41,485 bases of DNA from Acidobacteriota bacterium. Its GTDB lineage: Bacteria; Acidobacteriota; UBA6911; RPQK01; JBHHYX01. Shown in pieces: positions 6,825-35,481 of the stretch. How positions within the stretch are numbered: position 1 is the first letter of the stretch; every line of letters starts with the position of its first letter. Made by a program: the position numbers and the translations under genes. The notes beneath the pieces were generated by a model, which saw nothing but the letters and a program-made list of their open reading frames with translations, did not search any database and was not told the DNA's origin. Where the stretch lies: the NCBI GenBank assembly GCA_046757765.1, contig JBHHYX010000003.1, forward strand, positions 1-41,485. Reading direction: 5' to 3'.

Positions 6825-7009
6825 CTAGGCCGCATTTCTCACACCCAATCTACTGCAGAGCCGGAATCATCCGCGCTGACTGCGTTGCCCGGCCTCGGCC
6901 TCCTCGACGTAGTGCACGACTACGGCTCCGGGGGCCTCGGTCGTAACGCCTTGTCAGCGCGGCGCTTCCGGGCTCTTCGCTACGATCGGATGTGAGAAAT
7001 CCGGGCTAG
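6825..7009. mobile_element. MITE-like element, family A, copy 2 (most intact)
   Basis: Terminal inverted repeats CTAGGCCGCATTTCTCACA / TGTGAGAAATCCGGGCTAG (17 of 19 complementary); internal hairpin core CCTCGACGTAGTGCACGACTACG; non-coding. Confidence 0.8.
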
Positions 7010-17435: not shown

Positions 17436-17791
17436 CGGTCCTGCTCCGACTGGCCGCCCGGGCGGCAACCTCAGAATGATAGCTGATGAGGCGCGATCGG
17501 GCGATCAGTCGAGGGTGCTTTTGTTGGGTCAGGTGGATTGCGGCACAGTGGCTCGGCCGGCCTCCGTTCCGCACTTGCGACCAGCAGGTGCGGGGAATCC
17601 GCGCGGGATCCGGAGCGATGTCAAGTTGACCTGCCATTGTCCTACCTTTTACCCTAATGCTTCCGTAGTGGAGTCGGGCCTCCGGCGTAAGGCGGTTGCC
17701 TCTCACCCGCAGCGGGTGGAAGTGCTGAATAATGCGATCCGGCCCGCTCAAGCAGCTCATGCGGACCAGTGGGGCGAATCAGGGGTTGAGA

Positions 17792-18748: not shown

Positions 18749-19783
18749 ATGACGATAAGAAGCAACGATGACATTGAGCGGTTCCCCCTTGACCCCGAAT
18801 TACTGCCGGGCGCTTCCAACGCGGTTCGCCAGTGCCTGCGAATCCAGCCTCACGAGCGGGTGACCCTGATCACCGATGAAGCCTCTCTGGCCATTTGCCG
18901 AGCCCTGGCGGATCAGATCCGAGAAGTGGGTTCCCACTATCGTCTGTTTGTCCTGGAAGACCATGCCGAGCGGCCCCTTCAACACATGCCCGAAGCGGTG
19001 CTGTCATCGATGGAATCGTCCCAGGTCAGTCTCTTCGCCGCTCAGGCCGGCCCTGGGGAACTGGGGGCCAGGATGGAGATGATGGTGATTGTGAATCGGC
19101 TCAAGCTGCGTCATGCCCATATGGTCAATATCAGCAAGGAAATCATGATGCAGGGCATGAGAGCGGACTTCCGGGCGGTGGATCTGCTGAGCAGTCAACT
19201 GATCGAGCGAGCTCGCAAGGCGGCCAAGATCAAGGCCACCTCAACGGCTGGGACCGATCTCGTGGCCGAGTTTTCTCCCCATCTTTGCTGGATCAAGACC
19301 AGCGGCCTCATCGGCACGGACAAATGGGGGAATCTGCCCGGCGGGGAGATCTTCACTTCCCCGCTTCAAGTGAACGGAGTCTTTGCCGTTGACGGTGTCG
19401 TGGGGGACTACCTTTGCAGCCGGTACGGGGACTTAAGGGAGACCCCACTGCAGATCGAAATCTCGGACGGCCGCATCCGGCATCTGAGCTGTGAAAACGA
19501 GGAGTTGCTGGACCATTTTACCGATTACACAAGTGTGGATTCCAACAGCAACCGGGTGGGCGAGTTTGCCATCGGCACCAATCTTTGGGTCAAAGACGTC
19601 ATTGGAAACATTCTCCAGGACGAAAAAATTCCGGGTGTCCACATCGCCTTCGGCCATCCCTACAGCGAGCATACGGGTCAAGACTGGACCTCCTCCACCC
19701 ACATCGATTGTGTCGGTCGCTGCTTCGATGTCTGGATGGATGAAGCACAGGTCATGAAAGAAGGTCAGTTTCTCCTCAGTTGA
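18749..19783 (+). CDS. M29-family (AmpS/aminopeptidase T-like) metallopeptidase
   Basis: NLPGGEIFTSP, VGEFAIGTN, QDEKIPGVHIAFG and THIDC metal-ligand motifs; 12 bp downstream of the ATP-grasp gene. Confidence 0.85.
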   Translation: MTIRSNDDIERFPLDPELLPGASNAVRQCLRIQPHERVTLITDEASLAICRALADQIREVGSHYRLFVLEDHAERPLQHMPEAVLSSMESSQVSLFAAQAGPGELGARMEMMVIVNRLKLRHAHMVNISKEIMMQGMRADFRAVDLLSSQLIERARKAAKIKATSTAGTDLVAEFSPHLCWIKTSGLIGTDKWGNLPGGEIFTSPLQVNGVFAVDGVVGDYLCSRYGDLRETPLQIEISDGRIRHLSCENEELLDHFTDYTSVDSNSNRVGEFAIGTNLWVKDVIGNILQDEKIPGVHIAFGHPYSEHTGQDWTSSTHIDCVGRCFDVWMDEAQVMKEGQFLLS

Positions 19784-19918
19784 CCCGCACTCGGAATCCC
19801 GCCGGAAAAGAGGCTATTCCCATTGCCGGCGCCGACCGCACAGTCGGGCATTGGGGAAACGGCGGGCTCACGCCCACCGCTCGCCCGGAGTAGATTGAGT
19901 GTGAGAAATGCGGGTTAG
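19781..19918. mobile_element. MITE-like element, family A derivative spanning two convergent stop codons
   Basis: The right end GTAGATTGAGTGTGAGAAATGCGGGTTAG is a near reverse complement of the 6825 left end; left end TGACCCGCA. Confidence 0.6.
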
Positions 19919-21309
19919 GCACCCTCCGTCTCGTGTCGGGTCGCCCACATCCCCAAGCGGCCGATCTTGGCGCTGGCGAAGGCCTTGAGAGCTCTTGGAT
20001 AGTTGGGTCGGGAGTCCCACTGTTTGTGGAAGGCCACTTCGCTCACCATCCAGCGGTTGGCGAAGCGGTAGAAACGCTGGGAGTGGCGCCCGGCCACCGT
20101 GAGATCGCGGTCGGAGCTGGTCTCGAAGGTTTTGGAGGCGATGACCCGAGTTTCCACCTGCTCAAAGTAGGGAGTGCCTTTGATGGGGTAGGCGACGGTT
20201 GTTAAGAACACGTCGGGATTGGCCGCCTTCAAGTGGCCAACGGTTTCCTCCAGATCGGAAAGCTCTTCTCCCTCGTAGCCAAGCATGACGAAAAGTCCCG
20301 CTTCGATCCCGTATCTTTGCAGCATTCGCACCATTTCTCGGACTCGAGCGGCGTTGGTGCGCCGTTTCATGGCATCCAGAATGCGCTGCGAGCCACTCTC
20401 GGCTCCAATCCACAAACGGAAACAGCGCAGCTCGGCCAAGGTCCGGATGATCTCTTCGTCGAGGCGGTCCTCGCGTGAAATGGTCTCAAACGGAATCAGA
20501 AGGTCTCGGCGCTTCAACTCCTCGGCGTAGGCGGAAAACCAGCGCGGATTGAGGGTAAACACATCATCGGCATACCAGAGCATGTCGGGCTCGTACTCTT
20601 CTCGGATCAGTTCCACTTCGTCGGCAACATGGCGGGGCGAGCGACCCCGATGACTGTAACCGAAGACGCCGTGACTGCACCAGGTACAGGTGTAGGGACA
20701 GCCGCGAGAGGTGATCAGGGAAACCGATCCTCTCCCATGATGTTCTCTCCACACACGGACGTATCGGTGGATGTCCACCGCCTCCCGGTCTGGAAAAGGC
20801 AAGCTGTCGAGATCCCTGATAAAGGGTCGTGGTTCGGTCCGAACGAGGGCGCCGTCTTCCTCACGGTAGACCAGGCCCCGGATCCGGTGCATACTCCGCG
20901 GGCCGCGGCCAACCAGGTGTGGCACCAGTTCTTCCAAGGTCAGTTCTCCCTCGCCCACCACCACCACGTCGGCGCCTCGCGCAAGGTATTCCTCCGGGTA
21001 GTTGGCCGGCTCCGGTCCGCCCACTACTACGATTGCTCCCGTCTCGCGGCAAATGGCGATCAGCTCGAAAACACGCTTCCGGTTCATGAGGTTGCAGTAG
21101 AAGCCCACGATCGAGGGCCGCTCCCGTCTCATGAATTCCTCGAAGGCGCTCCCGGAGCTGAAAGTGCTGTCGAAAACGGCCACATCGAACCCCTTGGCCT
21201 TCAGATAAGAGGAGAGGTGAAGCAGTCCCAGGGGAGGATACGGCTTCATGACCTTCAACTCGTGAGGGTCGTGGCGCAGAAAATAGCCGTGAGTGAGCAG
21301 AATATCCAT
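19915..21309 (-). CDS. Cobalamin-binding radical SAM protein (rSAM-A)
   Basis: YPPLGLLHLSSYL, VVVGGPEP and DVVVVGEGE B12 domain; SRGCPYTCTWC [4Fe-4S] motif; YADDVF and IGAESGSQRIL; start at ATG 21309. Confidence 0.92.
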   Translation of the reverse strand: MDILLTHGYFLRHDPHELKVMKPYPPLGLLHLSSYLKAKGFDVAVFDSTFSSGSAFEEFMRRERPSIVGFYCNLMNRKRVFELIAICRETGAIVVVGGPEPANYPEEYLARGADVVVVGEGELTLEELVPHLVGRGPRSMHRIRGLVYREEDGALVRTEPRPFIRDLDSLPFPDREAVDIHRYVRVWREHHGRGSVSLITSRGCPYTCTWCSHGVFGYSHRGRSPRHVADEVELIREEYEPDMLWYADDVFTLNPRWFSAYAEELKRRDLLIPFETISREDRLDEEIIRTLAELRCFRLWIGAESGSQRILDAMKRRTNAARVREMVRMLQRYGIEAGLFVMLGYEGEELSDLEETVGHLKAANPDVFLTTVAYPIKGTPYFEQVETRVIASKTFETSSDRDLTVAGRHSQRFYRFANRWMVSEVAFHKQWDSRPNYPRALKAFASAKIGRLGMWATRHETEGA

Positions 21310-21382
21310 GCTGCTTGTGTGCTCTCCCCGCCCAACCACCGGGCCCGGATCGCCGCTGTAGGCGGCCAGATTATCGAGTAGG

Positions 21383-21658
21383 TAGTCCTCGTCCGAAAAC
21401 TTTTAATTCCTTGGCAGAATGGTAGTTGTGTTCAGCATCGAGAGCTTGAAGTTTCACCCTCCGGTCAATTCGCGGCCTGAGGCCGCTCCCACCTTCCCAA
21501 TCGGCGCCGTTGAGCTGAAGAGACGGTAGATCGGAAAGTGGGAGCCGCCTCAGGCGGCGAACGGCCCGCTCAAGTGTTCCACTTCCCCTGGAATTCCTGA
21601 GGCGCTTTAATTCTGACGGCTTATCCTTTTTCCATCATTTAGGCGCGTTCGAGGACTA
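21383..21658. mobile_element. MITE-like element, family C, copy 1, containing a REP doublet (REPIN-like)
   Basis: TIR TAGTCCTCG / CGAGGACTA. Inner inverted pair CGCGGCCTGAGGCCGCTCCCAC (21471-21492) / GTGGGAGCCGCCTCAGGCGGCG (21538-21559). Near-identical to 28144-28429. Confidence 0.85.
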
Positions 21659-21673
21659 TCCAAGTAATCTACT

Positions 21674-23089
21674 TCACGAAGAACTCAAATAGTGACGCAG
21701 CAACGAGACGCCTTGTCGAAGCTGAATCCTCAAATCGCTGAGATTCCAGCTCTTTCCCCATTTTCTGGCCCGTTCTCCGAGGTAGCCGAGGTTGAAATAG
21801 AACTCCCCCAGGGCGCGCTGCTTCATGGCGGCGACTCGAGCACGGCTCAGTGTCAGAGTCTGCATGGCCACCGGATGGCCGGATTGGTCCATGATTTCAA
21901 AGTCGCTCTCAATCAAGCCGAGGCTGAGGGCCCGCTGGCGAAGGGGCGTCCCCATTCGCGGCACAGCCACGTTGAAGGAGACAAAATCAGGGCCAAGCCT
22001 TCTGAGCAAGGCCAGGGTCTCCTGAAAGCTCTCCTCCGTCTCTTCCGGCAGACCGATGATCACGGTCGCCACCGTACGGATTCCGTGTCGGGCACATAAT
22101 TGGAACCCCTCCTGGATTGCTTCCCGAGTGTAATCTTTCCTGGCGGCTCTCAAAATCCGTTGGTTGGCGCTTTCCACCCCGAGAATCACCGTGTGGCACC
22201 CCGCCGCCTTCATCTGGAGGAGGAGGCGGTCACTCACCACATCCGGCCGGCTGAAGCAGAGCCAACCGAATCCATAGCCCACCCGCTGCATTTCGGAGAG
22301 CAATTGTTGCGCCCGCTCCCTGCCTATCCCGAACGTCTGATCGAGAAAGAAGATCTCCCGAACTCGAAGACGGGCGAGAGAGTCGAGTTCCTCCAGAACG
22401 TTGCTCACCGGCCGGATCTTCCACCCCAGCGTTGACATGATGCAGAAGTTGCAGGAGTAGGGGCACCCGAATTCCGTCATGACAGTCGCGAAACGTCGAT
22501 GGCGGACAAAGGGATACCGGTACGGATGGCCCAGAAACAGGCGGTGCTGCGGAACGGGCAGAGAGAACTCCTCTCCCTTGGGACGTTCAATGGGAAAGGC
22601 GGAGATCCCGCCGCGTTCTCGAACAGTCATATTGTTGGGACGCCGGCCATCTGGTGCGCCTTCCAGATAGATGCGCAGATCGTCGCTGCTGAAATCATGC
22701 AGGAAGGCGCTCACGAAAGGCAGTTCCGCCAGTCTCTCCTCACGGTGGTCGATCAGTATGTCCCCGATCAGAACCAGTCTGGCTCCAACGCGCTGGCTGA
22801 GCGACCGGTAAAATGGCACGTCTTCGGAATAGGAGACCGAGCCGATGAGCCCAACCACGACGTCGGGATCGAGTCGCTCAACCCGGTCCAGGCAGGTCCT
22901 GGCGTCCAGCCGCTGGACGATGGCGTCAAGCAGGGAGACCTCACCCACGTCCTTCAGCAAGCCGCTCAGATAGAGGAAATCGATGGGATGATTGATGTAG
23001 TCCGCCTGCGACACCTTGCTGCAGAAATAGTCGCGAAGGTAGAGGCGGCGGCCGGGCGGGTTGAGAAGAACAATCTTTCTCTTAGGCAT
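21674..23089 (-). CDS. Radical SAM protein with divergent cobalamin-binding-type N-domain (rSAM-B)
   Basis: KIVLLNPP N-terminus, EFGCPYSCNFC, FLDQTF, GVESANQRIL and IIGLPEET; start at ATG 23089 overlaps the upstream GT9 stop. Confidence 0.88.
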   Translation of the reverse strand: MPKRKIVLLNPPGRRLYLRDYFCSKVSQADYINHPIDFLYLSGLLKDVGEVSLLDAIVQRLDARTCLDRVERLDPDVVVGLIGSVSYSEDVPFYRSLSQRVGARLVLIGDILIDHREERLAELPFVSAFLHDFSSDDLRIYLEGAPDGRRPNNMTVRERGGISAFPIERPKGEEFSLPVPQHRLFLGHPYRYPFVRHRRFATVMTEFGCPYSCNFCIMSTLGWKIRPVSNVLEELDSLARLRVREIFFLDQTFGIGRERAQQLLSEMQRVGYGFGWLCFSRPDVVSDRLLLQMKAAGCHTVILGVESANQRILRAARKDYTREAIQEGFQLCARHGIRTVATVIIGLPEETEESFQETLALLRRLGPDFVSFNVAVPRMGTPLRQRALSLGLIESDFEIMDQSGHPVAMQTLTLSRARVAAMKQRALGEFYFNLGYLGERARKWGKSWNLSDLRIQLRQGVSLLRHYLSSS

Positions 23090-24356
23090 GATCTTTGATC
23101 CGGTTTCCTCCACAGCTCAACCGTTGCACTCTGATCTCGTCCGATCCGGCCTCGGGATGCGCCGCCGCGCTCTGTTGGCGCCTGGGCCCTGCGCCGGGCA
23201 CCACCTGCTGACGGATGAATTGGTGGACTTCCCGAATCACGTGCGCGGTTTTGATCTCCTTCATGCAGGCCACGTTGTTGATGCAGTTGACTGTCTTGGC
23301 ATTGTCCACACTCATGCATGGGCTACACCAAAGGTTCTCGTAGAAGACCAGCCGGTGCGGGCTGAGCGGACCGTAGCGCAAGGGGGTCTCGGGCCCATAA
23401 AAACCCACCACCGGAACGCCGAAAGCGGATGCCAGATGAATGGGACCGCTGTCATTGGACACCAGGAGGAGCGCCGAAGCCAGGAGAGAAGCCAGCTGGG
23501 GCAGGTTCAACAAACCGGTCCAGTTGTGCACTCTGCGGGAGGGTCTCCAGGCTTGTTCCAGGGGCGCAACATAGGCCATCTCACCTTTCGAGCCAATCAA
23601 CACGAGATCAAAGTCGTACTTCCCCAAAAGGGATTTCCCCAGCCGCACGAACCGTTCTCGGGGCCAGCGTCTCTCCAGGGCGAGGGAACTGGCATTGACA
23701 TTGATCACAACGTAAGGGCGGTTCTCGAAGGCTAGCTCAAGAGAGGACGCACCTTGGCGATTCAGCACTGGCCGAGGAGGTTGTGGCAGTGTAGTCGCTT
23801 TGCCTCTGGCCAGATTGAGGAACTGTTCGGCGGCGTGAAGCTGGCTTTGGAAAGTGATTGAAACATCCTGGAGACGTCTCTTGAGACCTTCCTTTCGAGA
23901 GAATCCCACCGCACACCGTGGCTCCGCCCAGCGAGCCACCAGGCCGGAGAAGTTGACAAAGAATTCCCCGTCGAGAACCAGATCGTAGCCTTCCCTCCTG
24001 AGCGAACGAATCAACAAGAGGGAGCGGATCAGGAATGAGAGAGAACCCCGGAAAGCCAGCGTCCGCACTTTTTCGATCCAGGGAATACAGCCAAACAGAT
24101 CGCGATTGCGGGCGAGTGTCAGGTAATGGATTTCGGCCTCGGGATAAGCCTGTTTCAGCCACCGCAACGCCGGCTCTGAGAGGACAATGCTGCCAATGCC
24201 CCAGAACTTGATGAACAGGATCTTCCGAATAGGGCCGGGGGTTGAATCCCGCCTGGGAAAAAAGGTCCTCAGGGCAAGGTCTGCGAGAATGAAGGCGCGT
24301 CCCACATACTCGTCGATCAGCTTGGACAGTCTGATTTTGAGCCTTTCACGCTTCAT
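23082..24356 (-). CDS. Glycosyltransferase family 9 (heptosyltransferase-like)
   Basis: KILFIKFWGIGSIVL, RRWPRERF, VSNDSGPIHLASAFGVPVVGFYGPE and C-terminal CSPC..C..C; ATG 24356 overlaps the upstream TGA. Confidence 0.9.
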   Translation of the reverse strand: MKRERLKIRLSKLIDEYVGRAFILADLALRTFFPRRDSTPGPIRKILFIKFWGIGSIVLSEPALRWLKQAYPEAEIHYLTLARNRDLFGCIPWIEKVRTLAFRGSLSFLIRSLLLIRSLRREGYDLVLDGEFFVNFSGLVARWAEPRCAVGFSRKEGLKRRLQDVSITFQSQLHAAEQFLNLARGKATTLPQPPRPVLNRQGASSLELAFENRPYVVINVNASSLALERRWPRERFVRLGKSLLGKYDFDLVLIGSKGEMAYVAPLEQAWRPSRRVHNWTGLLNLPQLASLLASALLLVSNDSGPIHLASAFGVPVVGFYGPETPLRYGPLSPHRLVFYENLWCSPCMSVDNAKTVNCINNVACMKEIKTAHVIREVHQFIRQQVVPGAGPRRQQSAAAHPEAGSDEIRVQRLSCGGNRIKDHA

Positions 24357-26587
24357 TGCAACTCGTCTGGAATGGGAATCCAATACAGTGTACTAAACTC
24401 GAGGCCCCGGCCTCGATCGGAGGTAAAGACGATCCGGTTGTGGGCCCCGTCCCAGACGGGTTCATCGTCCGCCCCCAGGTGAACGGTCAAACGCGAGGTC
24501 TGGCGACTCTCCACCTCCACGGCCCAGATGTCCCGATTTCCAGGGCGATCCCAGGCGAAGAGAATTGTCCTCTGGTTGGAAGACCAGGCGGGCGAAGTGA
24601 TGCGGTCTTCGGAATGCAGGAGGGTGCTTTGTTGACGTCGCCTCAAATCAAAGATTCCCAAGCTGCTCCCCTCGCCATTACGCACACAGTAGGCCAGGTG
24701 AGTGCCCCGGGGCGAATAGGCAACATCGTAAAAACGGCCGCCTCTCAACACCGTCACCGCTTTCCCCGAAGCGATATCTGTCACCCTAAGGTCACCCTCT
24801 TTCACGGATGCAAAGCGGAGGCCGTCGGGGCCCCAGCTGGGTTTCTCTCCCTCGGCAACAAAAGCGGCTGGCTCCCCCCGTTTTCGGCTCAACCAGATCT
24901 CCGACCTCCCCGCCTCGACGGTTTCGACCAGAAGACTGGCATCATCAGACGCCAAATCCATATCGTAGTAATTGCGGCTCGCCGGCGGTGTCCAGCGCTC
25001 GCCGTCGGCGGCGTAGATGGCATAGTCTTCTCTAAAGAGCTCACAGTAGCTGAAGAGGAGTTCGTCTTTCCCCCCATCGGGCGCCCCCAGAATCAGACCC
25101 AGGTGGCGGTCAAACGCCTTGCCGGCTATCTTCAACAACCTTGCCCCATCCAAGGGTTGGTTTCGATCACCGCCATACTGATGGATCGTGCTCAGCCCAA
25201 TCAACAGAATCACCGCTCCCCAAGCCCATCGTCCCGGGCCCGGACTCCAGCGGATGAACCGTCGCAGGAAGAAAACGATTGAGAGATAGAAGATCAACAG
25301 CAAGTAGAGACGGGAGTAGGCCAGAGGCGTCCACCAGCCTCTGGCGAAGTCCTCGAGCCGAAGGTAGTGGGGCAGGTTGAGCACCACGAACTGAACTCCC
25401 AAAAAACCTGCTGCGGCCGGCTTTCCCAGATCCAGGAGAAGCTTGACGGAGGGGACCGCGGTCATCGTCAGGAGCAGAAAGTGGTAGGTCGCGCCGGTGG
25501 GAGAGAGGAGGAGAAGGGATAGGGGGATCCAACCCAATTGAAACGATTGGTTTTGTCCCGGGAGTGCAAAAGAGGCGCGAAGCAGGATGAAAAGCGAAAA
25601 GGCTCCCAGGCCCCACAGGATCAGGTTTTTCAAGAGGAAAAAAAAGAACGGCTGGGCGGCGGCAGGATGAGGATTGAGCGTTTCCTGGAAGAGAAAGAGG
25701 CGGCGAAAAAGGCTGTTCCAGGATTGAGCGCGAGTAGCAAAAGGGTCCTGGATCTCCCCTTTCAGGTGCCTGGGGAGAACCTGGTCTGCAAAGGTCTGAA
25801 AAGACTGGAAGCCCCCCAGCCACAGCGTCGCCATCAGAACAACCAGCAGGGTGAGGGCTGCGGCAGTTACGATCCTTGCTTCCTTTCGCCACAAGGAATA
25901 GGCGACCCACAAAGTGCCCACGTACTTCACCGGTATCAACAAGGCCAGGCAGACTCCCGCCGCAACAGGCCGTCCCCGCTGGCGAAAATAGAGGCCCAGC
26001 AAGAGCGAAGCCAGCAGCAGCAGGTAAACCTGCCCAAACAGAAAGTTGTTGATCAGGGCCGCCCCGCTGCCCAGAAAAAGGATCCCCGTGAGAAGCCAGT
26101 TCAAGTGTGATGTCTTGGCCAGGAGCACGACACACAGGACGGCCAGAGCGGCGTTGAACCCAATCCAGACCCTCTTGGCCGTGAGCGCATCGAGCCTGCT
26201 CAGAGGCAGCAGGAGCAGAGCCGTGGATGGAGGATGGGGAATGAACCCGCCCACCTGGCCTTTGATCCCGTAACGGTCCATCTGCTTCTGAAACCAGATA
26301 AAATCCCGATAGGCCGGCTCAACCGATCTTCCGTCCGCCAGGATCCGGGCAGCCGTGTAGTAGTTGGCAAAATCCCCCCTTGTGTCGGCCATCGCCGGGA
26401 CGATCCCTTTGACGACGATGATAGCGGTGAAGAAGAGTAACAGGCCGAGCAGCAGTGCTCTCGTCAGCACAGCGGCCGCCGGCTGATGCGCGAGAGTGAA
26501 CGGCGCCGAGAGCGAGGGTCCGGGATCACGAGCCTTGAGGGCACTCGAGACACAGCGCAGAGCGGCTCTCCAGCGCCGCGCCTTCAA
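24353..26587 (-). CDS. GT87/DUF2029-like membrane glycosyltransferase fused to a TolB-like (PD40) beta-propeller
   Basis: GDFANYYTAA, FIPHPP, NFLFGQV and IPVKY GT87-type motifs with many TM helices, then propeller repeats (PSWGPDG, VAYSPRG, PAWSSNQ, EPVWDG, IVFTSDR). Start uncertain: TTG 26587 coupled to the upstream stop, or GTG 26470. Confidence 0.78.
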   Translation of the reverse strand: MKARRWRAALRCVSSALKARDPGPSLSAPFTLAHQPAAAVLTRALLLGLLLFFTAIIVVKGIVPAMADTRGDFANYYTAARILADGRSVEPAYRDFIWFQKQMDRYGIKGQVGGFIPHPPSTALLLLPLSRLDALTAKRVWIGFNAALAVLCVVLLAKTSHLNWLLTGILFLGSGAALINNFLFGQVYLLLLASLLLGLYFRQRGRPVAAGVCLALLIPVKYVGTLWVAYSLWRKEARIVTAAALTLLVVLMATLWLGGFQSFQTFADQVLPRHLKGEIQDPFATRAQSWNSLFRRLFLFQETLNPHPAAAQPFFFFLLKNLILWGLGAFSLFILLRASFALPGQNQSFQLGWIPLSLLLLSPTGATYHFLLLTMTAVPSVKLLLDLGKPAAAGFLGVQFVVLNLPHYLRLEDFARGWWTPLAYSRLYLLLIFYLSIVFFLRRFIRWSPGPGRWAWGAVILLIGLSTIHQYGGDRNQPLDGARLLKIAGKAFDRHLGLILGAPDGGKDELLFSYCELFREDYAIYAADGERWTPPASRNYYDMDLASDDASLLVETVEAGRSEIWLSRKRGEPAAFVAEGEKPSWGPDGLRFASVKEGDLRVTDIASGKAVTVLRGGRFYDVAYSPRGTHLAYCVRNGEGSSLGIFDLRRRQQSTLLHSEDRITSPAWSSNQRTILFAWDRPGNRDIWAVEVESRQTSRLTVHLGADDEPVWDGAHNRIVFTSDRGRGLEFSTLYWIPIPDELQ

Positions 26588-28062
26588 AACCGTTGCTCGG
26601 CATGAAAACCCGTCTTCAGGCGCTGAAGGCCCCAGTAAGTGTAGACCTCCCATGGGAAACCGAACTTTTTGGTTCGGATCCGATATCTCGAGGAAGGTTG
26701 GAAGAGATTTAATACCAGCCGGTGGCGGCGGGAATGAGACTTCTCTCCCACGTTGACCTGGTGGTATCCAAAACGAAGATACTGACGGATGGATTGAAGC
26801 CGCCGATGCTGCCCGTCGCTGAGCCAGGGAAGCTTGGTGATGCGCGGGTAGAAATCGGCCCACTCCTCAAAGCTCCTGGGCGGGTCGAATCCCTTTTGGA
26901 GGCTGACCGGCCAGAGGGGTGATCCCGGATAGGGGGTGAAGATGTTGGTGTAGCAATCCGCCTGGGGGTTGGTCTGGTAGATGAGGTCGATCAGATCCAG
27001 GGTTTTTTGCAGCTCCTCCTCTCCCTCGGCGGGCAGACCGAAGATGAAGCCGAAGCTGGCCCGGATGTCGGCCGCCTTGCAACGCTCCAAAGCCGCCACG
27101 GTCTTGGCCGCGTTGGCCTTCTTTTCTATGGAACGAAGCACTTCGTCGGAACCGGATTCAGCGCCAAAGTGGATCCTCACCAGACCCGCGCGCCGGTAAA
27201 GTCGGGCTTGCTCATCGGTTAGTCTGGCCCAGCAGTCCACTCGATCCTGGATATACCACTCGCAGTTGAGTTCGGCGCGGAGGAACCCTTCCGCGATCTC
27301 CAGGCATCGCTCCCGGAAGGCAAAGAAGATGTCGTCGATGATCCCCAGCAGTCGAATGTCGTATCGCCGCACCAGATAGCTCACCTCATCCACCACCTGT
27401 TCGACCGGCAACAGGTCCAGGTTGCGGCCGTAGACGGAGGCATTCGAACAGTAGCCGCAGTTGTAGGGACAACCGTGGCTGGTGGTGTACATGACCCAGC
27501 GCAGACCGGTCAAACGGTGATAGCGATCATAATCGATCACTTCATAACCTGGCAGCCGGCTGGGGAGTTGAGCCACTTTAGGGTAAATCCGAGGCGGGTT
27601 GCTGCGAATCTCACCCTTGTCCTTCCAGATAATGCCGGTGACCTCCCCGATCGACTTCCCATCCCGAAAGCAATCGGCCAGCTCCAGCATGGTCCTTTCA
27701 CCCTGTCTCAACGCCACCACGTCAGCAAAGGACGCTTCCAGGCTCTGTTCCGGCAGGATGGACGGGTGCCAGCCTCCCAGCACGATCGGGATCTCGGGGT
27801 AGTGCTCTTTGACGGCCCTACCCACGTCTACGGCACCACTGATCATGGGGCCGGTGATCAGGGAGATGCCCAGGCAGAGCGCCCCCTCCATTTCCTTCAA
27901 CACGGCCTCAACGAAATTCTCCTCCAGGGCACTGTCAATGATCTTGACTTCATAGCCGGCTCTCACCAGGGCACTCGAGATCGCAATGAGAGCCAAAGGC
28001 GGGGACGCCTCTTTGCTGGCGTAAGAGGGGAAAAAGAAAACGATCTTGTTGCGGGTCGTCAT
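26584..28062 (-). CDS. Cobalamin-binding radical SAM protein (rSAM-C)
   Basis: PPLALIAIS, PIVLGGWHPS and VALRQGE; TSHGCPYNCGYC; IIDDIFF, FGAESGS and FTPYPGS; ATG 28062. Confidence 0.92.
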   Translation of the reverse strand: MTTRNKIVFFFPSYASKEASPPLALIAISSALVRAGYEVKIIDSALEENFVEAVLKEMEGALCLGISLITGPMISGAVDVGRAVKEHYPEIPIVLGGWHPSILPEQSLEASFADVVALRQGERTMLELADCFRDGKSIGEVTGIIWKDKGEIRSNPPRIYPKVAQLPSRLPGYEVIDYDRYHRLTGLRWVMYTTSHGCPYNCGYCSNASVYGRNLDLLPVEQVVDEVSYLVRRYDIRLLGIIDDIFFAFRERCLEIAEGFLRAELNCEWYIQDRVDCWARLTDEQARLYRRAGLVRIHFGAESGSDEVLRSIEKKANAAKTVAALERCKAADIRASFGFIFGLPAEGEEELQKTLDLIDLIYQTNPQADCYTNIFTPYPGSPLWPVSLQKGFDPPRSFEEWADFYPRITKLPWLSDGQHRRLQSIRQYLRFGYHQVNVGEKSHSRRHRLVLNLFQPSSRYRIRTKKFGFPWEVYTYWGLQRLKTGFHAEQRF

Positions 28063-28143
28063 GGACAATCAGTCCTATCCTAAGCCACTCGACCGGAACC
28101 TGGGAAGTGTCCCTGGCGACTTCTCTCCACTTCAGCAGCTAAC

Positions 28144-28429
28144 TAGTTCCCGTCCGGAAACTTATAACTCCTTGACAGAATGGTAGTTGTGTTCAGCATC
28201 GAGAGCTTGAAATTTCACCTCCGGTCAATTCGCGGCCTGAGGCCGCTCCCACCTTCCCAATCGACGCCGTTGGCAAAGAGCTGAAGAGACGGTAGATCGG
28301 AAAGTGGGAGCCGCCTCAGGCGGCGACCGACCCACTTGAGTGTTCCACTTCCCCTGGAATTCCTGAGGTGCTTTAGTTCTGACAACTTATCTTTTTTCCA
28401 TCATTTAGACCGCGTCCGGATGGGAACAA
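28144..28429. mobile_element. MITE-like element, family C, copy 2, containing a REP doublet
   Basis: TIR GTTCCCGTCCGGA / TCCGGATGGGAAC; interior nearly identical to 21383-21658, in the same orientation. Confidence 0.85.
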
Positions 28430-28460
28430 ACTAAACCAAACTCCAGGCCCGCGAGCGCCT

Positions 28461-29936
28461 TCAAAACCCTGCCGTCTCGGGCCGCTGATAATGGAGGAAG
28501 CGCTGCAGGACCCTCAACTCCAGGGGGAACCGGTAAATGCGAAAGCGGTAACGCCAGGAAGAGAGGAGGCGTAGGACAATTCGCGCAAGCCCAGTCAACC
28601 TCTGGTCAGTCGTGGTGGGGTAGTAAGCATTCAAGACCTTTTCGAAGTCTCGGATTCTAGCCCAAAGGGGATCCGAAACCCAGGGGATCTGGACGCTGCG
28701 CCTTTGTGAGAATTCCATCCACTCGGGACCAATCCACTCTTCCGGCGTGCGGGGGAATTCGAACCCTTCGGCTTTGGCCTGCTCATACAAGCTGCCGGCG
28801 AGAGGAACGGGAGTATAGAGATAGAGGATGATCTCGCTGGACGGATTGCAGCGTTTGACCCGGCGAATAAAATCAAGAGTTTGAGCGGCGTCCGTCTCCG
28901 GGTCCGGGGGGCTCCCGAGGACGAACGAGAACTCTGGAACCACCCCGTAGACGGCCATTTTTTCCGCCATCAACAGGGTCTTTTCAACTGTGGCTGTTCC
29001 GCCCTTGTCCATCCGTTTCAAGACTTCGTCGGAACCGGACTCGGCACCCATGAACACCATCTTGAGTCCGCTGTCTCGGAGGAGTTGCCAGCTCCGGTCG
29101 GAGTAATTGAGCAGGGTGTCGATTCTGGACTCTCCCCACCAGGCAATGCCCAGATCGCGAATGCGCTCGGCAAACTCAGCGCTTCGAGCCTCGTGGACAA
29201 AGAAGTTGTTGTCATAGAACTCCACCGCGTTGGCCCCCCATTGGCGCACCAGATAGCGGACCGTTTCCGACGTGCGCTGGGCAGACTGGGCCAACCATCG
29301 CCCCTCCACCATGTTGACGACCGAACAGAAGTTGCAGAAGAAGGGGCAGCCATAGCTGGAATGGTGGGAGAGGGTCTTCGTCCCCAGAAAGGTGCTGCGC
29401 AAATAGCGAGAAACATCCACTCGCTGGTAGGGGAAAGCGGGCAGTTCGTCCGGATGAGGGAGAGGTGCTTTTTCATTCGCATGGATCTCACCGGTCCGGC
29501 GGTGACGGTAGGCCATGCCGGGTAAGCGGGTCGCGTCGGAACCGTTGCGGAGCGCTGCCAGCAGGTCCCTGAAAACCCACTCGCCATGGCCTCGAACCAC
29601 ATAGTCCACGTAGTCAGCGCGCAGGCAGGCTTCATAGTGTTGAGTGGGGAAGTAGCCACCCCAGACAACCGTCAAATCGGGATAGTCTTTTTTCAGTTGA
29701 CGGCACTGGGGCACGGCGTGACTGAGTTGGGGCCCAGGCATCACCGTCACTGCCAGGAGATCCGCGTTCGTCTCCTCGATCGCCCGGTGGAGAGTCGACG
29801 CCGGGTCGGATTCGAGGTTTCCATCGATGATCAGGTACTCCTCTTCTCCCTCCAGCATCGCCCCCAGGGCAAGCAGAGACATTGGCAGGACCGGCTTGCG
29901 CAAAGCGGAACTGGGAGGATTATAGAAGATCAGCAT
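28461..29936 (-). CDS. Cobalamin-binding radical SAM protein (rSAM-D)
   Basis: LPMSLLALG, VVWGGYFPT and YVVRGHGE; SSYGCPFFCNFC; FYDNNFF and MGAESGSDEVL. Confidence 0.92.
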   Translation of the reverse strand: MLIFYNPPSSALRKPVLPMSLLALGAMLEGEEEYLIIDGNLESDPASTLHRAIEETNADLLAVTVMPGPQLSHAVPQCRQLKKDYPDLTVVWGGYFPTQHYEACLRADYVDYVVRGHGEWVFRDLLAALRNGSDATRLPGMAYRHRRTGEIHANEKAPLPHPDELPAFPYQRVDVSRYLRSTFLGTKTLSHHSSYGCPFFCNFCSVVNMVEGRWLAQSAQRTSETVRYLVRQWGANAVEFYDNNFFVHEARSAEFAERIRDLGIAWWGESRIDTLLNYSDRSWQLLRDSGLKMVFMGAESGSDEVLKRMDKGGTATVEKTLLMAEKMAVYGVVPEFSFVLGSPPDPETDAAQTLDFIRRVKRCNPSSEIILYLYTPVPLAGSLYEQAKAEGFEFPRTPEEWIGPEWMEFSQRRSVQIPWVSDPLWARIRDFEKVLNAYYPTTTDQRLTGLARIVLRLLSSWRYRFRIYRFPLELRVLQRFLHYQRPETAGF

Positions 29937-30001
29937 TCCCGGCGTTCCTGAACCATAGGGCTGTCAACGGGCTGCCCCGTTTCGGGGCACGGTTGGGCCG
30001 A

Positions 30002-30098
30002 AGTGCGCGACTATGGCTCCGGGGGCCTCGGTCGTAACGCCTTGTCAACGCTTCGCTTCCGGCTCTTCGCACCGACCGGGTGTGAGAAATCCGGGTTA
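30002..30098. mobile_element. MITE-like element, family A, right-half copy
   Basis: GGCTCCGGGGGCCTCGGTCGTAACGCCTTGTCA...TGTGAGAAATCCGGGTTA matches roughly 6911-7009. Confidence 0.75.
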
Positions 30099-30143
30099 CG
30101 CACCCGCTTGCAGACTTGGATTTTGAACTTGTTCCAGCAATGA

Positions 30144-30854
30144 TTATATCGCAGGAGGCAAGACTGTCTCAGGCGATACGCGGTACAACTCCAGAACCTC
30201 ACTTCCCAAATCACGCTCCGCGACCACTTTCGCCGCCAGATTGTGAGAACGGAATTCGCTCAGGAAAGACGCCCGCTCTCCCACCGAAGAAAGAACGACC
30301 AGCGCATGTCCATCCGTCTCCAGGTGGTGTTCCAATTGGCTGGCGAAACGGCTCCCGATGTCGTCGCTTCTGAGGGCCTGGTCGAGGGCGTCACTGGGGC
30401 AACCGGCCAAATAGGGAGGATTGAACAAGACGACATCGAATTTTTCTTCGCCCACGGGCCCGAAAAGGTTCCCCTCCCGGACCTCGACGCGATCTTCGAC
30501 TCGGTTCAACAACGCGTTGATCCTTGCGCAGCGAACGGCTGCGGGATTCAGATCCACGGCAACTATTCGGTCGCAATGAAGAGCGGCAACCATGGAGGCC
30601 GCTCCTGTCCCGGTCCCCATGTCCAGCACAGAGGCCCCCGCCGGTATTGGAACTCTGTCCAGATGGTCGGCCAGAAACTCTCCCGTGAAAAAGATCTTCG
30701 GGTTGAACACTCGAGGCAGGACGAGAATCGGCCTGCCTGCAATGGTCTCCAAGACGATCCGATTCAGGCGCCGCTTTCGAAAAAGTTCGAACTGCAACAA
30801 GACGAAAAGGCGCCAGAACCTTCTTGCCCACTTCTTGTCATTTGGCCGATTCAT
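30144..30854 (-). CDS. Class I SAM-dependent methyltransferase, HemK2/PrmC-like
   Basis: VLDMGTGTG, AVDLNPAAV..ARINA, GNLF and FNPPY motif typical of amide/amine N-methyltransferases; start at 30854 or 30863. Confidence 0.85.
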   Translation of the reverse strand: MNRPNDKKWARRFWRLFVLLQFELFRKRRLNRIVLETIAGRPILVLPRVFNPKIFFTGEFLADHLDRVPIPAGASVLDMGTGTGAASMVAALHCDRIVAVDLNPAAVRCARINALLNRVEDRVEVREGNLFGPVGEEKFDVVLFNPPYLAGCPSDALDQALRSDDIGSRFASQLEHHLETDGHALVVLSSVGERASFLSEFRSHNLAAKVVAERDLGSEVLELYRVSPETVLPPAI

Positions 30855-31791
30855 GAGACGCACTTCCGACCACCAGCAGGAATTGAGCCGGTTCCCGACG
30901 TCTCAAGAGCCATGCCTTCCACGGCTTGAGAGTCCAGCGCCAGCCGTAGAAGGGCTGGATCCGGCTCCACTTCAGCGCCAGGCCGGTCTCCAGTTCTTTT
31001 AAACCATCATAGGTGAGGTAGTTTCGGCTGGGAAGGGAGTTGGAAGGGAATCCGTAGGTCTTCTCGAAATAGAGTTCCCGTTCGCGCACCATCCGCTCTC
31101 CACTGGAGCCATCGTTGTAGACCGGAGTATCCATGATGACCACCTTCCCTCCTGGAACCAAGAGACGAAGCGCCTCCCGAAGTGTGGCCTCATAGCAGGT
31201 CGAATAATGGAAAGAGGCATTGAAGATGCAGAGGTCAAACTGTTTGGACTGGAAGGGAACGTGCTCGAACTCGGCTTGAACCGGCGTGAATGGGGCATCG
31301 TAGTAAACATGGCTCCCCAGTCCGTCTTCGGCGTTGGTCAGAAGATCCACGGCAACCACCTGGTGCCCCTGCTTCGAGAGTCGGTAAGATAACCATCCAT
31401 TTCCCGCTCCCAGGTCGAGTATCCTGCTGGAGTGCCGCCGCTTGCCCTGGCTGACGGGGAGGACACGAGCCAAGAGAGTCCGGTAGCTGACGGCACGGAT
31501 TCGCCAGTTTCTCTGGAACCGCCCCGAAAGGTCCTGATAAGGGAGCGCGCGGTAGTAGCCCGGGTCTCTGGCTCCCCGTCCTTCCGCCTGGCGGATCACC
31601 TGGTATTCGCGCATGAACTGTTGGAGCGACTTCAGCCGCTCCGGCGAGAGAAAACGCCAAACTCCGCCAGTGCACGGATAGACCCTTCCACAAGAGGGGC
31701 ACCTTTTGCGACCGGGTTCATTTCCGTCCAAGCTCCTGCCGCAGTGGGGACAACTCCACATCCAGTGGTCGGTGACGCTTGCCTGACTCAT
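30838..31791 (-). CDS. Class I SAM-dependent methyltransferase with N-terminal zinc-ribbon (Trm112-like) segment
   Basis: CPHC..CPSC N-terminus, ILDLGAGNGW, FDLCIFNASFHY and LLVPGG; overlaps both neighbours. Confidence 0.85.
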   Translation of the reverse strand: MSQASVTDHWMWSCPHCGRSLDGNEPGRKRCPSCGRVYPCTGGVWRFLSPERLKSLQQFMREYQVIRQAEGRGARDPGYYRALPYQDLSGRFQRNWRIRAVSYRTLLARVLPVSQGKRRHSSRILDLGAGNGWLSYRLSKQGHQVVAVDLLTNAEDGLGSHVYYDAPFTPVQAEFEHVPFQSKQFDLCIFNASFHYSTCYEATLREALRLLVPGGKVVIMDTPVYNDGSSGERMVRERELYFEKTYGFPSNSLPSRNYLTYDGLKELETGLALKWSRIQPFYGWRWTLKPWKAWLLRRREPAQFLLVVGSASHESAK

Positions 31792-33059
31792 TTTGATCGG
31801 GATCGGCCTGAGGGGGCATCGGGAGACCCAACCAAGGCGCGCCTTGGCTCGCCCGTTTGCAGGAAATCTTCCACGGCGTTCAGGAGCAGATCGATGTGGC
31901 GGGTGTCATTAAAGAAGTGGCAGGAGACTCTCAATCCCCCCACATTTGACGTATAACGGAGCGAAATCAGGATGTTTCGGTCGAGCAGATACTCTTGCAA
32001 GGCGAGTTCTCTGGCCCTCTCTTCCAGGCCGAAGGTGACGATCCCCGATCGGCATTGGGGATCCAGCGGCGTGACCATCGAAACGGACAGATCTTTCAAG
32101 CCTCGAATCAAGTGATCCGTCAGGTTTCGAATCCGGGATTCAATCTCCGCGGTTCCCAACTCGTTTATGAGGTGCAGCGAGGCGGCCAATCCCACTGCAC
32201 CCGGGTAATTTCCGGTTCCACCATTCTCAAAGAGCCGGGCGCCCTCCGTGAAGGAGATCGGCGTCAAGGGGGAAGCGGACGGGTTTTGAAAATGGGCCGA
32301 CCACCCGCCTGATGGAGGGTCCAGAGCGAGATAGCCGGAGAGAGGAGATTTGAGCCGATCCCGAAGGGACCTCCGGATGAAGAGCAACCCAGTGCCAAAG
32401 GGGGAGTTGAGCCACTTGTGTCCGCCACAGCTCACAATGTCGACCGGCGTTTGTCGCGTGTCAAGCGGGAAAGCGCCCAGTTGCTGGACTGCGTCGACCA
32501 CCAGGAGAACGCCGCGCCCACGGCACAGTTGCGCCAGGCCATCCAGGTCGATGCGAAAGCCGTTACACCACTGCACCGAACTGACCACTACTGCCCGCGT
32601 TCGCGCGTCCATCCTCTTCTCAAAATCAGAGGGGAGCAACTCCCCGTTTCGATGGCCCACCAGGCGGATTTCCGGACGGATTCCGTCCCCGGGCTGGCGC
32701 CATGGGAGGGGCACCTGAATGAACTCCAGATCTGAAATCAGGATGTTGTCCCCGCTTTCCATGGGCAAGGCCCGGGCCACGATCGACAGCCCATGTGTCG
32801 TGCTCTCGACCAGGGCAACTTCATCCGGAAGGGCCGCAATCAGCCTGGCGGCTTCGAGACGGGCAGCCTCCATCGAGGAGTCCAGGGCCAGGTGGTGAAG
32901 CGTGGCGGAACGCGACGGGCAGAGCATGACCTCTTGCAGGAAGTCTGAAACAGCCGTGACTGCCCGGCGGGGCGCCAGGCTGACACAGGCTGCGTCCAGG
33001 AAAACCTTCCTCTCCAGGGCAGGGAACTGGCCGCCGACATTCTCGATGGATATTTTCAT
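31788..33059 (-). CDS. Class V PLP-dependent enzyme (aminotransferase/lyase/epimerase type)
   Basis: FLDAACVS, VESTTHGL, VVDAVQQLG, PLP-lysine CGGHKWL, FENGGT and LRVSCHFFN; start at ATG 33059. Confidence 0.88.
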   Translation of the reverse strand: MKISIENVGGQFPALERKVFLDAACVSLAPRRAVTAVSDFLQEVMLCPSRSATLHHLALDSSMEAARLEAARLIAALPDEVALVESTTHGLSIVARALPMESGDNILISDLEFIQVPLPWRQPGDGIRPEIRLVGHRNGELLPSDFEKRMDARTRAVVVSSVQWCNGFRIDLDGLAQLCRGRGVLLVVDAVQQLGAFPLDTRQTPVDIVSCGGHKWLNSPFGTGLLFIRRSLRDRLKSPLSGYLALDPPSGGWSAHFQNPSASPLTPISFTEGARLFENGGTGNYPGAVGLAASLHLINELGTAEIESRIRNLTDHLIRGLKDLSVSMVTPLDPQCRSGIVTFGLEERARELALQEYLLDRNILISLRYTSNVGGLRVSCHFFNDTRHIDLLLNAVEDFLQTGEPRRALVGSPDAPSGRSRSK

Positions 33060-33130
33060 TCTAATGATTCTCGCAGCGCCGATCCCAACCGCTCGCGGCC
33101 CGACGCGGGCCTCTCTCGACACAAGTTACC

Positions 33131-33238
33131 CCTATGCCGCCCCTTCAGGGCTTCTTTGTCTCGAGCAGCTCACCACCCAGGGCGTTGCCCTGGGCTGACC
33201 TATGCTGCCCCGTTGGGGCAGGGGGCAAATCCGGGTAA
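33131..33238. repeat. REP-like tri-hairpin unit ending in a family-A-type terminus
   Basis: CCTATGCCGCCCCTTCAGGGC and CCTATGCTGCCCCGTTGGGGC flank the palindrome CCCAGGGCGTTGCCCTGGG; followed by AAATCCGGGTAA. Confidence 0.7.
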
Positions 33239-33355
33239 AGGCCGCAATCTCTCATGATGCCACAAGTAAGGGGGAGCCAGTTCCCTCCCGGGAAAGCGGG
33301 TCGACCTCGCCCACTCCGAGTGCGGGGACACTGGAATCGAAGGGGAGAGGAGCTG

Positions 33356-35017: not shown

Positions 35018-35481
35018 GACATTCAGCTTAACCTCCGGGAAAGGACACCAAAGAGGCCCATCGCGTCCATCACCTTTTCGCGCCATCGCAGACCGCCGCT
35101 TTCCGTTGGTGCAACGCTTCCGGGCAGGGGGCCTTCCTCAAGCGACTTCAGTTGTCGACTGATTCAGTATACTCCGAGCCCGGAGAGCCGTGCGGGAAGA
35201 ATGCGAGTTACGATCCCCTCAATTGTTTTTTCTGGACTCTTACGGGCTCCAGGGTTCAAAATATTCGGCGAAAAGGGAAGTGGGGTCTTTGACTCGAGAC
35301 GGCCTCCAATTGGCGACTCCTCTGGTTTTGGGCACCGTTCACGGACGAAAAGAGAGCCTTCAATTTTCTGGACGGGTATCCATTTATTTGGATGATCGAC
35401 TTTGCATAAACTCGTGGAAAATGCATAGTGACGGTTGCAAGTGGCTATGTGGAAAATACTTAGGCCAGGTGGGTGTTTGTA

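Follow-up and report, generated by a model that had tools for sequence, protein, structure and literature searches.

Closest Described Systems

Class-B radical S-adenosylmethionine (SAM) enzymes are known from cofactor, antibiotic, membrane-lipid and ribosomally synthesized and post-translationally modified peptide (RiPP) pathways. The cobalamin radical SAM C-methyltransferases, of which TokK, CysS and TsrM have been solved, combine a B12-binding domain, a radical SAM core and a CxxxCxxC motif, and two enzymes of this kind, GenK and MoeK5, act on sugars. The present analysis concerns a group of nine genes of an Acidobacteriota bacterium, found at positions 19915–33122 of a 41,485-nucleotide stretch of contig JBHHYX010000003.1 (this whole stretch is called the window below). 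The group encodes four radical SAM proteins (rSAM-A to rSAM-D), two methyltransferases (MT1 and MT2), a pyridoxal phosphate (PLP) enzyme and two glycosyltransferases of the GT87 and GT9 families. The radical SAM proteins share the architecture of the C-methyltransferases but differ from them in their low identity, in reaching no family cutoff and in occurring as three to five paralogues per putative glycan operon. We lean, a little beyond even, towards an accessory, so far uncharacterised operon for the tailoring of an envelope glycoconjugate (glycan).

Another described relative is AprD4, which works with AprD3 in the 3′-deoxygenation of apramycin and is a sugar-acting radical SAM diol dehydratase. 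It resembles rSAM-B and rSAM-C over the radical SAM core and the C-terminal part, and its own N-terminal domain is B12-like and similar to the weak corresponding domain of rSAM-B. AprD4 differs in several respects: the window proteins score 52–106 bits with its family model NF033070 (cutoff 500), no gene for a reductase of AprD3 type adjoins the radical SAM genes, and the context is that of an aminoglycoside rather than, as proposed here, of an envelope glycan.

For the glycosyltransferases, the closest systems are those of envelope assembly. PimE, the polyprenyl-phosphate-mannose-dependent mannosyltransferase of mycobacteria, has in common with the window protein the GT87 family, the fold of the transmembrane (TM) domain and a conserved Asp in the loop that follows the first TM helix. 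The two are only 19% identical, though, the window protein carries a fused C-terminal TolB-like beta-propeller, and its host is a Gram-negative organism without the phosphatidylinositol mannoside pathway. The heptosyltransferases WaaC and WaaF of the lipopolysaccharide (LPS) inner core belong to the same Pfam family as the window GT9, and WaaF (1psw) was matched; the TIGR02195 model stays just under its cutoff, however, and the WaaC and WaaQ models far under theirs. Three-component systems with a GT-C enzyme (ArnC/ArnT, GtrA/GtrB/Gtr-type) recall the related loci of KSB1 type, in which a GT-C enzyme, a GT2 resembling polyprenyl-phosphate-sugar synthases and a flippase occur together. The window, in contrast, lacks the GT2 and the flippase, and adds several radical SAM enzymes and a GT9. 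In the hopanoid systems (HpnI/HpnJ/HpnK, HpnP/HpnR), a class-B radical SAM enzyme likewise adjoins a glycosyltransferase, but scores are low for both HpnJ (108–126 bits, cutoff 578) and HpnR (35–100 bits, cutoff 650).

Every part of the group thus falls in a known superfamily, yet the set maps to no characterised pathway. This agrees with what an earlier note on this DNA had suspected: the NCBIfam equivalog models score far below their cutoffs, and a literature search returned no paper on this gene combination. No paper assigning class-B radical SAM enzymes to cell-envelope glycan assembly was found in the literature search either.

An Operon of Nine Co-Oriented Genes

The nine open reading frames (ORFs) all lie on the minus strand, in the transcription order PLP class V enzyme, MT1, MT2, rSAM-D, rSAM-C, GT87-propeller, GT9, rSAM-B, rSAM-A. 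Both this order and the families given by the earlier note are borne out by the ORF list and by Pfam and NCBIfam searches. Five start/stop overlaps had been listed there. Four of them (31788-91, 30838-54, 24353-56 and 23082-89) are compatible with ATG starts. The fifth, at the rSAM-C/GT87 junction (26584-87), requires a TTG start at 26587 for GT87 and is uncertain, because a GTG at 26470, the start in the ESM Atlas record, is an alternative by which the two genes would be about 110 nt apart. The three large intergenic gaps (200–400 nt) are filled with dispersed repeats, as had been noticed, and two repeat families could be located in them. A fragment of a repeat of about 186 nt (29999–30098) separates MT2 from rSAM-D, and copies of a repeat of about 265 nt lie between rSAM-D and rSAM-C (28144–28408) and between rSAM-B and rSAM-A (21383–21650). 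The operon is real, tightly packed and partly translationally coupled. Scans for promoters and terminators gave counts no higher than the shuffled expectation and are hence uninformative.

Conservation and Distribution

Full-length homologues of the GT87-propeller protein (38–53% identity) were found in 6 of 40 relatives of the same order, spread over several families (the genome G003 is counted as a non-carrier in this tally). The window proteins were mapped by tblastn onto the DNA around these six matches. Two long contigs, from G035 and G012, show the order MT1–MT2–rSAM-D–rSAM-C–GT87–GT9–rSAM-B, with two unrelated genes inserted between MT1 and MT2 in G012; G004 has the order from MT1 to rSAM-B plus rSAM-A, and three short contigs carry matching fragments of the cluster. 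The PLP gene is missing from these loci, and upstream of MT1 in G035 there are SurA-like genes.

A wider survey relied on a pattern scan with the GT87 alignment alone, limited to one genome per species. It yielded 34 loci, all from metagenome-assembled genomes (MAGs), labelled as Acidobacteriota, candidate division KSB1, ‘Cytophagia’, Bacteroidota/Bacteroidetes, Calditrichaeota and Blastocatellia. Of these loci, 33 have a GT87 match at 1e-8; the remaining one (L054) matched nothing. A GT9 homologue accompanies GT87 in 27 of these 33 loci, and class-B radical SAM homologues longer than 900 nt number at least one in 30, at least two in 24 and at least three in 11; the counts are lower bounds, several contigs being truncated. 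Every mapped gene shares the strand of GT87. The search for co-occurrence in other genomes which the earlier note had proposed therefore reveals a co-oriented module that recurs across phyla.

Orthogroups were formed from greedily picked ORFs of 34 sources, the window included, at no less than 38% identity and 60% coverage, some ORFs being mis-picked on the opposite strand. They include GT87 in 28 of the 34 sources, GT9 in 26, rSAM-C in 17, rSAM-D in 16, rSAM-B in 15, rSAM-A-like proteins in 10, MT2 and a fifth radical SAM protein in 7 each, and MT1 in 6. A short form in Bacteroidota consists of an rSAM-A-like gene, a methyltransferase, GT87, GT9, rSAM-D and MT2. As judged from these alignments, the conserved core comprises one or more radical SAM enzymes, methyltransferases, the GT87-propeller protein and GT9. 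The nine genes cannot be kept as one unit, as had been supposed: rSAM-A and the zinc-ribbon methyltransferase MT1 vary by lineage, and the PLP gene has no adjoining orthologue elsewhere.

The module is patchily distributed. A sample of 400 other genomes from the phylum contained rSAM-C at 70% identity or above in three, and homologues of 40–44% in six more. Three of these six (G338, G302 and G281), from a different acidobacterial lineage, contain a rearranged variant. In G338 a divergent GT87-PD40 gene stands next to four radical SAM homologues, a plain methyltransferase, an MT1 homologue and a methyltransferase-amidohydrolase fusion, while G302 and G281 have five radical SAM homologues each. 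No GT9 was detected within the 20 kb examined of these three clusters (L055, L056 and L057).

One may ask whether unrelated genes simply came to lie side by side without a common pathway. The three gaps of 200–400 nt with their inserted repeats could indeed hold promoters of their own, but four junctions overlap, and the order and orientation are conserved across phyla. Such synteny argues that the cluster is more than chance and largely refutes this explanation, to which we give hardly any credit.

Two genes of the module look interrupted in relatives. The rSAM-D of G012 (L043/L016) maps as overlapping pieces (residues 1–312 and 310–491), and the GT87 of locus L039 as two pieces (42–535 and 540–738). 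These splits may be frameshifts or MAG assembly errors.

Neighbours Travelling with the Module

The genes that accompany the module in other lineages are mostly of glycan type. A Wzx-type flippase lies between rSAM-C and GT87 in three KSB1-type loci. A GT2 adjoins GT87 in three loci, also of KSB1 type; its best NCBIfam matches, all sub-cutoff, are the polyprenyl-phosphate-sugar synthases AglJ (103 bits), PpgS and ArnC. Another GT2 is present in three loci and a GT4 in four. A second GT-C enzyme, similar to PMT_2/Agl23, occurs in five loci, where its partner is an unknown multi-pass membrane protein about 500 residues long, itself found in eight loci, two of them from Acidobacteriota. GNAT proteins, an SGNH/AlgX-like protein, more class-I methyltransferases and a class V PLP enzyme recur as well. 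The interpretation as an envelope-glycan operon, which the earlier note had put forward, rests on these neighbours (Wzx, the polyprenyl-phosphate-sugar-synthase-like GT2, GT4, the second GT-C, GNAT and SGNH), and fits them.

The neighbours scanned included no lipid-synthesis gene, no non-ribosomal peptide synthetase or polyketide synthase (NRPS/PKS) and no conserved exporter, in a scan in which Tes and Mss were not searched for. Outside the larger genes, no shared family of ORFs of 25–95 residues was found across the 33 loci, a search whose scope excludes peptides shorter than 25 residues or encoded elsewhere. The small ORFs that relatives have between rSAM-D and rSAM-C appear to be non-coding. 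The absence of NRPS/PKS, transporter and precursor peptide, claimed earlier, thus stands for the window and for the range of 25–95 residues; it fails for transporters in the three KSB1-type loci with a Wzx inside the cluster.

In an Acidobacteriota relative (L032, 15640–17717), an insertion-sequence-like pair, an rve integrase and an AAA_22 ATPase, is located between rSAM-B and the pair formed by the unknown membrane protein and PMT_2.

Radical SAM Enzymes

All four radical SAM proteins score above the Pfam cutoff for Radical_SAM (42–79 bits), each with a CxxxCxxC motif. The four distinct versions of this motif reported earlier could all be read in the sequence. rSAM-A (19915–21339, minus strand, likely ATG start 21309; CPYTCTWC) has Radical_SAM at 75.9 bits and B12-binding (PF02310, cutoff 32.1) at 70.6 bits. 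The corresponding values are 79.1 and 56.2 bits for rSAM-C (26584–28068, minus strand; CPYNCGYC), and 42 and 56.4 bits for rSAM-D (28461–29936, minus strand; CPFFCNFC). In rSAM-B (21674–23113, minus strand, likely ATG start 23089; CPYSCNFC), Radical_SAM reaches 79.2 bits, and the B12-binding domain is partial and below cutoff (26.6 versus 32.1 bits). The view that all four are of cobalamin type has thus to be restricted to rSAM-A, rSAM-C and rSAM-D, which have a clear B12 domain. We know of no sequence motif that is diagnostic of cobalamin use by class-B radical SAM enzymes. With pairwise identities of just 23–29%, the four are old paralogues, as had been deduced from their mutual divergence, and not recent duplicates.

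None of them reaches any NCBIfam equivalog cutoff among the models scored (BchE, HpnJ, PhpK, ApyD, HpnR, AprD4 and the ladderane-lipid family): scores range from 35 to 153 bits, against cutoffs of 360–750. The best such match of rSAM-D is BchE (115 bits, cutoff 481), and its orthologues in other loci are 45–70% identical. rSAM-C, directly upstream of GT87, is the best conserved gene of the module, with 61–78% identity between Acidobacteriota and KSB1-type loci. In public protein collections, where about 1055 relatives of it were found, those at 55% identity or more form about 107 clusters (at 90% identity), with generic or automatic names only. Beyond this group, identity drops to about 42%, and then to the 30–38% of the general class-B family, for which the rSAM-C search retrieved 3287 representatives at E values up to 1e-30. 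Orthologues of rSAM-B follow downstream of GT9 with 45–64% identity. Those of rSAM-A are 62% identical in G004 and 59% in G370, and other loci contain homologues of 35–54%.

A phmmer search of the PDB gave AprD4 as the best solved relative of both rSAM-B (6fd2, 92.5 bits) and rSAM-C (72.7 bits), followed by weaker matches to TokK, 9ccb, OxsB, CysS and TsrM. GenK is a B12-dependent radical SAM sugar methylase of an antibiotic pathway, and the diffusible product of such a pathway, for instance an aminoglycoside-like or moenomycin-like glycoside, might be considered here instead of an envelope component. The nearest solved relative, with its place in the apramycin pathway, would fit this, as would the PLP enzyme, the methyltransferases, the patchy distribution of the module and the existence of B12-dependent radical SAM sugar methylases in antibiotic pathways, among them MoeK5, which is mentioned in PMC11214058. 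The cluster has no conserved enzyme for scaffold formation, resistance gene or exporter, however, and two GT-C enzymes facing the membrane or periplasm, the Wzx flippase and the periplasmic propeller indicate the envelope. A diffusible glycoside is therefore improbable in our view.

A similar weighing applies to membrane lipids, which the radical SAM enzymes might methylate or cyclise (hopanoids, or branched tetraether or diabolic-acid lipids) before the head group is glycosylated. HpnJ, HpnR and a ‘ladderane lipid’ family are indeed among the matches (35–126 bits). Class-B enzymes do perform methylation or cyclisation chemistry in HpnP/HpnR/HpnJ and GrsA/B, in part as set out in PMC11214058. 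Acidobacteria produce branched glycerol dialkyl glycerol tetraethers, the methylases of which are given as unknown in PMC11868695. All the lipid-family scores remain far under cutoff, though, no lipid-synthesis gene is conserved beside the cluster within the limits of the neighbour scan given above, and with rSAM-C (at 70% identity or above) in 3 of 400 genomes, the module is not widespread enough for a lipid trait of acidobacteria in general. A search for squalene-hopene cyclase (PF13243) gave no match in the source genome (91.7% complete), nor in one KSB1 and one Bacteroidota carrier (G418 and G419), and in G035 and G420 it gave only partial matches of 22–34 bits. The hopanoid option raised in the earlier note is thereby disfavoured, and the cluster is unlikely to explain methylated-hopanoid biomarkers in the carriers tested without the cyclase. 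Taken as a whole, lipid tailoring has a small chance of being correct, comparable to that of the diffusible glycoside.

The source genome has 12 matches to the B12-binding domain in all. Two of them (1906–2235 and 4610–4939 of contig C111) belong to ORFs of about 490–550 residues which lie close together and may represent a second class-B radical SAM cluster.

Glycosyltransferases

The GT87 protein (24353–26587, minus strand) is a GT-C membrane glycosyltransferase, the GT87 model scoring 75 bits against a Pfam cutoff of 25. The C-terminal half is a PD40/TolB-like beta-propeller (PD40, 35.7 bits). Since the full-length model retrieved only beta-propeller matches from the PDB, the TM domain was searched alone. 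Its model, built from a 10-sequence alignment (pLDDT 88, pTM 0.88), has PimE as best fold match (9dm7; E 8e-6, TM-scores 0.60/0.71), followed by PIG-U, ArnT, ALG6 and ALG3. The loop GDFANYYT after the first TM helix is invariant in six of six orthologues, and its residue D72 in all 10 aligned sequences as well. D72 would be the catalytic residue by analogy with PimE and ArnT, which is our assumption. Orthologues in Acidobacteriota and KSB1-type loci are 40–55% identical to each other. The association of GT87 with PD40 is a recurrent unnamed architecture of the ESM Atlas, with clusters of 53–232 members that come mostly from Acidobacteriota.

GT9 (23082–24356, minus strand) is a heptosyltransferase-like GT-B glycosyltransferase (Glyco_transf_9, PF01075, 100.7 bits), the closest PDB matches of which are 3tov and the WaaF structure named above. 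It scores 119.5 bits with the heptosyltransferase II model TIGR02195 (cutoff 134.6), 82.6 with TIGR02193 (cutoff 185) and 80.3 with TIGR02201 (cutoff 170). Because the source genome has five further GT9 matches, three of them with higher scores, the window GT9 is probably not the housekeeping core enzyme. As for the heptose pathway, the source genome contains only sub-cutoff genes, GmhA-like (93–101 bits) and HldE-kinase-like (120 bits). Two other carriers have genes that score above or close to the cutoffs of these models, and the KSB1 carrier has weak matches only. On contig C16 of the source genome (8648–12014), two of the sub-cutoff genes, one GmhA-like (93 bits) and one HldE-kinase-like (120 bits, 508-residue ORF), are found within 3.5 kb. 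Together they may be a divergent pair for heptose activation, from which GT9 could obtain its donor.

Methyltransferases and PLP Enzyme

MT1 (30838–31791, minus strand) has an N-terminal zinc ribbon, with the motifs CPHC and CPSC, followed by a class-I SAM methyltransferase domain (Methyltransf_11, 57.6 bits). Its orthologues, 50–58% identical, are found in six Acidobacteriota loci, always adjoining or near MT2, and a homologue with 46–47% identity is present in the variant clusters with several radical SAM genes. The ribbon itself is limited to Acidobacteriota MT1. We considered a role of this ribbon as a Trm112-like partner of MT2 and make no such claim: the matches are to generic zinc ribbons, with a single sub-threshold Trm112p match in one orthologue.

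MT2 (30144–30863, minus strand, likely ATG start 30854) is an MTS/HemK2-like methyltransferase (MTS, 63.9 bits) with the motif FNPPY. N-x-P-[YF] is invariant in eight of eight aligned orthologues from Acidobacteriota, KSB1-type and Bacteroidota loci. The protein stays below the cutoffs of the families concerned, TIGR00537 (84.7 versus 87 bits), PrmC TIGR03534 (65.6 versus 199) and NF011529 (106.9 versus 162). The NPPY motif marks methyltransferases that act on an amide or exocyclic amino nitrogen.

This HemK2/PrmC-like character with NPPY brings in the modification of a protein or peptide, in which the radical SAM enzymes would C-methylate, MT2 would N-methylate Gln or Asn amides, and GT9 and GT87 would glycosylate a surface protein or a ribosomal peptide. 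The propeller would then bind the protein substrate, and the peptide would be encoded elsewhere. Heptosylation of proteins by GT9-like enzymes is known. Protein O-mannosyltransferases are members of the GT-C superfamily, and a PMT_2 gene accompanies the module; the RiPP enzyme ApyD is also among the best NCBIfam matches (96–127 bits for rSAM-A, rSAM-C and rSAM-D, 69 for rSAM-B). These scores are far under the cutoff of 750, however, no conserved ORF of 25–95 residues was detected within or next to the cluster across the 33 loci, and the small ORFs between rSAM-D and rSAM-C appear non-coding, as said above. Neither a protease nor an ABC exporter is conserved with the cluster, and the Wzx flippase and the polyprenyl-phosphate-sugar-synthase-like GT2 indicate glycan carriers. 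Protein or peptide modification is thus unlikely, while still somewhat more credible to us than either a lipid or a diffusible product.

The PLP-dependent class V fold enzyme (31788–33122, minus strand, likely ATG start 33059; Aminotran_5, 152.6 bits) has the HK lysine motif. It is SufS/C-DES-like, scores 116.7 bits with the SufS family (cutoff 475), and is not a SufS-type desulfurase, since no cysteine aligns with the GHHCA loop of 5b7s. No orthologue was found next to the cluster elsewhere, with only matches of 23–26% in five loci, four of them of KSB1 type. By these comparisons, the gene is a window-specific accessory outside the conserved core.

Proposed Role in Envelope Glycan Tailoring

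An envelope-glycan operon might operate as follows. On the cytoplasmic face, GT9 would use a nucleotide sugar, possibly a heptose-type donor, to extend a lipid-linked acceptor, which could be lipid A-core or a polyprenyl-linked glycan. The radical SAM enzymes would perform C–H chemistry in the cytoplasm on that sugar or on its activated (lipid- or nucleotide-linked) precursor: probably cobalamin-dependent C-methylation or rearrangement for rSAM-A, rSAM-C and rSAM-D, whereas rSAM-B may carry out an AprD4-like diol dehydration. MT1 and MT2 would add further methyl groups, probably on nitrogen in the case of MT2 in view of N-x-P-[YF], and the PLP enzyme of the window could provide a lineage-specific additional step, amination or elimination. 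After flipping, the GT87-propeller protein would take a sugar from polyprenyl phosphate and attach it to an acceptor that the propeller holds in the periplasm.

Tentatively, and with odds that we place below even, the product may be more narrowly a sugar so far undescribed in primary envelope glycans. It would be a heptose-type or related residue altered in several radical SAM steps that depend on cobalamin (more than one C-methylation, deoxygenation or carbon-skeleton rearrangement), N- or O-methylated and installed in the periplasm in a PimE-like manner, the acceptor being picked by the fused propeller.

Several points weigh against a glycan operon of this kind. The chemistry of the radical SAM enzymes is not assigned, because none attains a family cutoff. 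The similarity to AprD4 is low (73–92 bits by PDB phmmer; 106 bits with NF033070 against 500), and lipid- and peptide-acting class-B families score about equally. The classical targets of NPPY-type methyltransferases are Gln residues of proteins or bases of nucleic acids, and not sugars. Among the neighbours scanned, no gene for nucleotide-sugar biosynthesis accompanied the core, and the window itself has neither a flippase nor a polyprenyl-phosphate-sugar synthase.

If such an undescribed sugar is indeed the product, B12-radical chemistry would for the first time be assigned to the assembly of LPS or surface glycans, and the 107 or so rSAM-C clusters mentioned above would represent a new enzyme family of high conservation. 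With a gene order that recurs in at least four phyla, in bacteria that are for the most part uncultured, the module offers in any case a testable enzyme set: one very conserved radical SAM enzyme, a GT9 and a PimE-like, propeller-bearing transferase. Its elucidation could uncover new sugar chemistry as well as a new mode of acceptor selection by GT-C enzymes.

Flanking Genes and Dispersed Repeats

On its 3′ side, past rSAM-A, the operon is followed by a convergent M29-like ORF (18749–19783, plus strand). A gene similar to NAD_binding_4 (‘male sterility’) acyl or thioester reductases (16353–17468, minus strand) is located 2.4 kb past the operon end and is not conserved with the cluster. On the 5′ side of the PLP gene lies a co-oriented gene for an exported GWxTD-domain protein (33356–35017, minus strand; Pfam 58 bits, TIGR04514 123.8 bits), no homologue of which was seen beside the cluster in other loci. 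A longer plus-strand ORF that overlaps it (33254–35395) has no family match and is probably spurious. Farther out are the housekeeping genes tig, clpP, clpX, lon, engB and rho, together with an acidobacterial-type OMP_b-brl_4 receptor.

At gathering thresholds, Rfam gave zero matches across the window, and no known riboswitch was found in the gaps. A permissive scan of 19700–33400 returned a chance microRNA match within the 265-nt repeat and, outside the operon, a sub-threshold Acido-Lenti-1 RNA motif (33176–33220, plus strand; 33.4 bits, gathering score 37, E 2e-4). The latter is placed in the gap between the PLP and GWxTD genes, on the strand opposite to both.

The two window copies of the repeat of about 265 nt are about 91% identical, and the genome contains 10 matches including these two. 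Eight of the 10 span at least 135 nt, the copies outside the window being on contigs C41, C5, C39, C26, C31 and C1. No Rfam family match was found for this repeat. At least five of the eight long copies, by visual inspection of the ORF lists, lie in one orientation between co-oriented genes of the opposite strand. This arrangement is more suggestive of an element that is transcribed as part of operons than of a miniature inverted-repeat transposable element inserted at random. A regulator specific to the radical SAM genes was considered and rejected, the ORFs that flank its six other long copies having no similarity to the cluster proteins.

The repeat family of about 186 nt is more abundant, with 651 first-look candidates in the genome and 52 listed matches, many of them 87–96% identical. 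It is partly palindromic, and its window sites are 3511–3682, 6837–7008, the fragment in the MT2/rSAM-D gap (29999–30098) and a further fragment at 19889–19918. This family may contribute to the fragmented assembly of the 5.6-Mb draft genome, which consists of 698 contigs.

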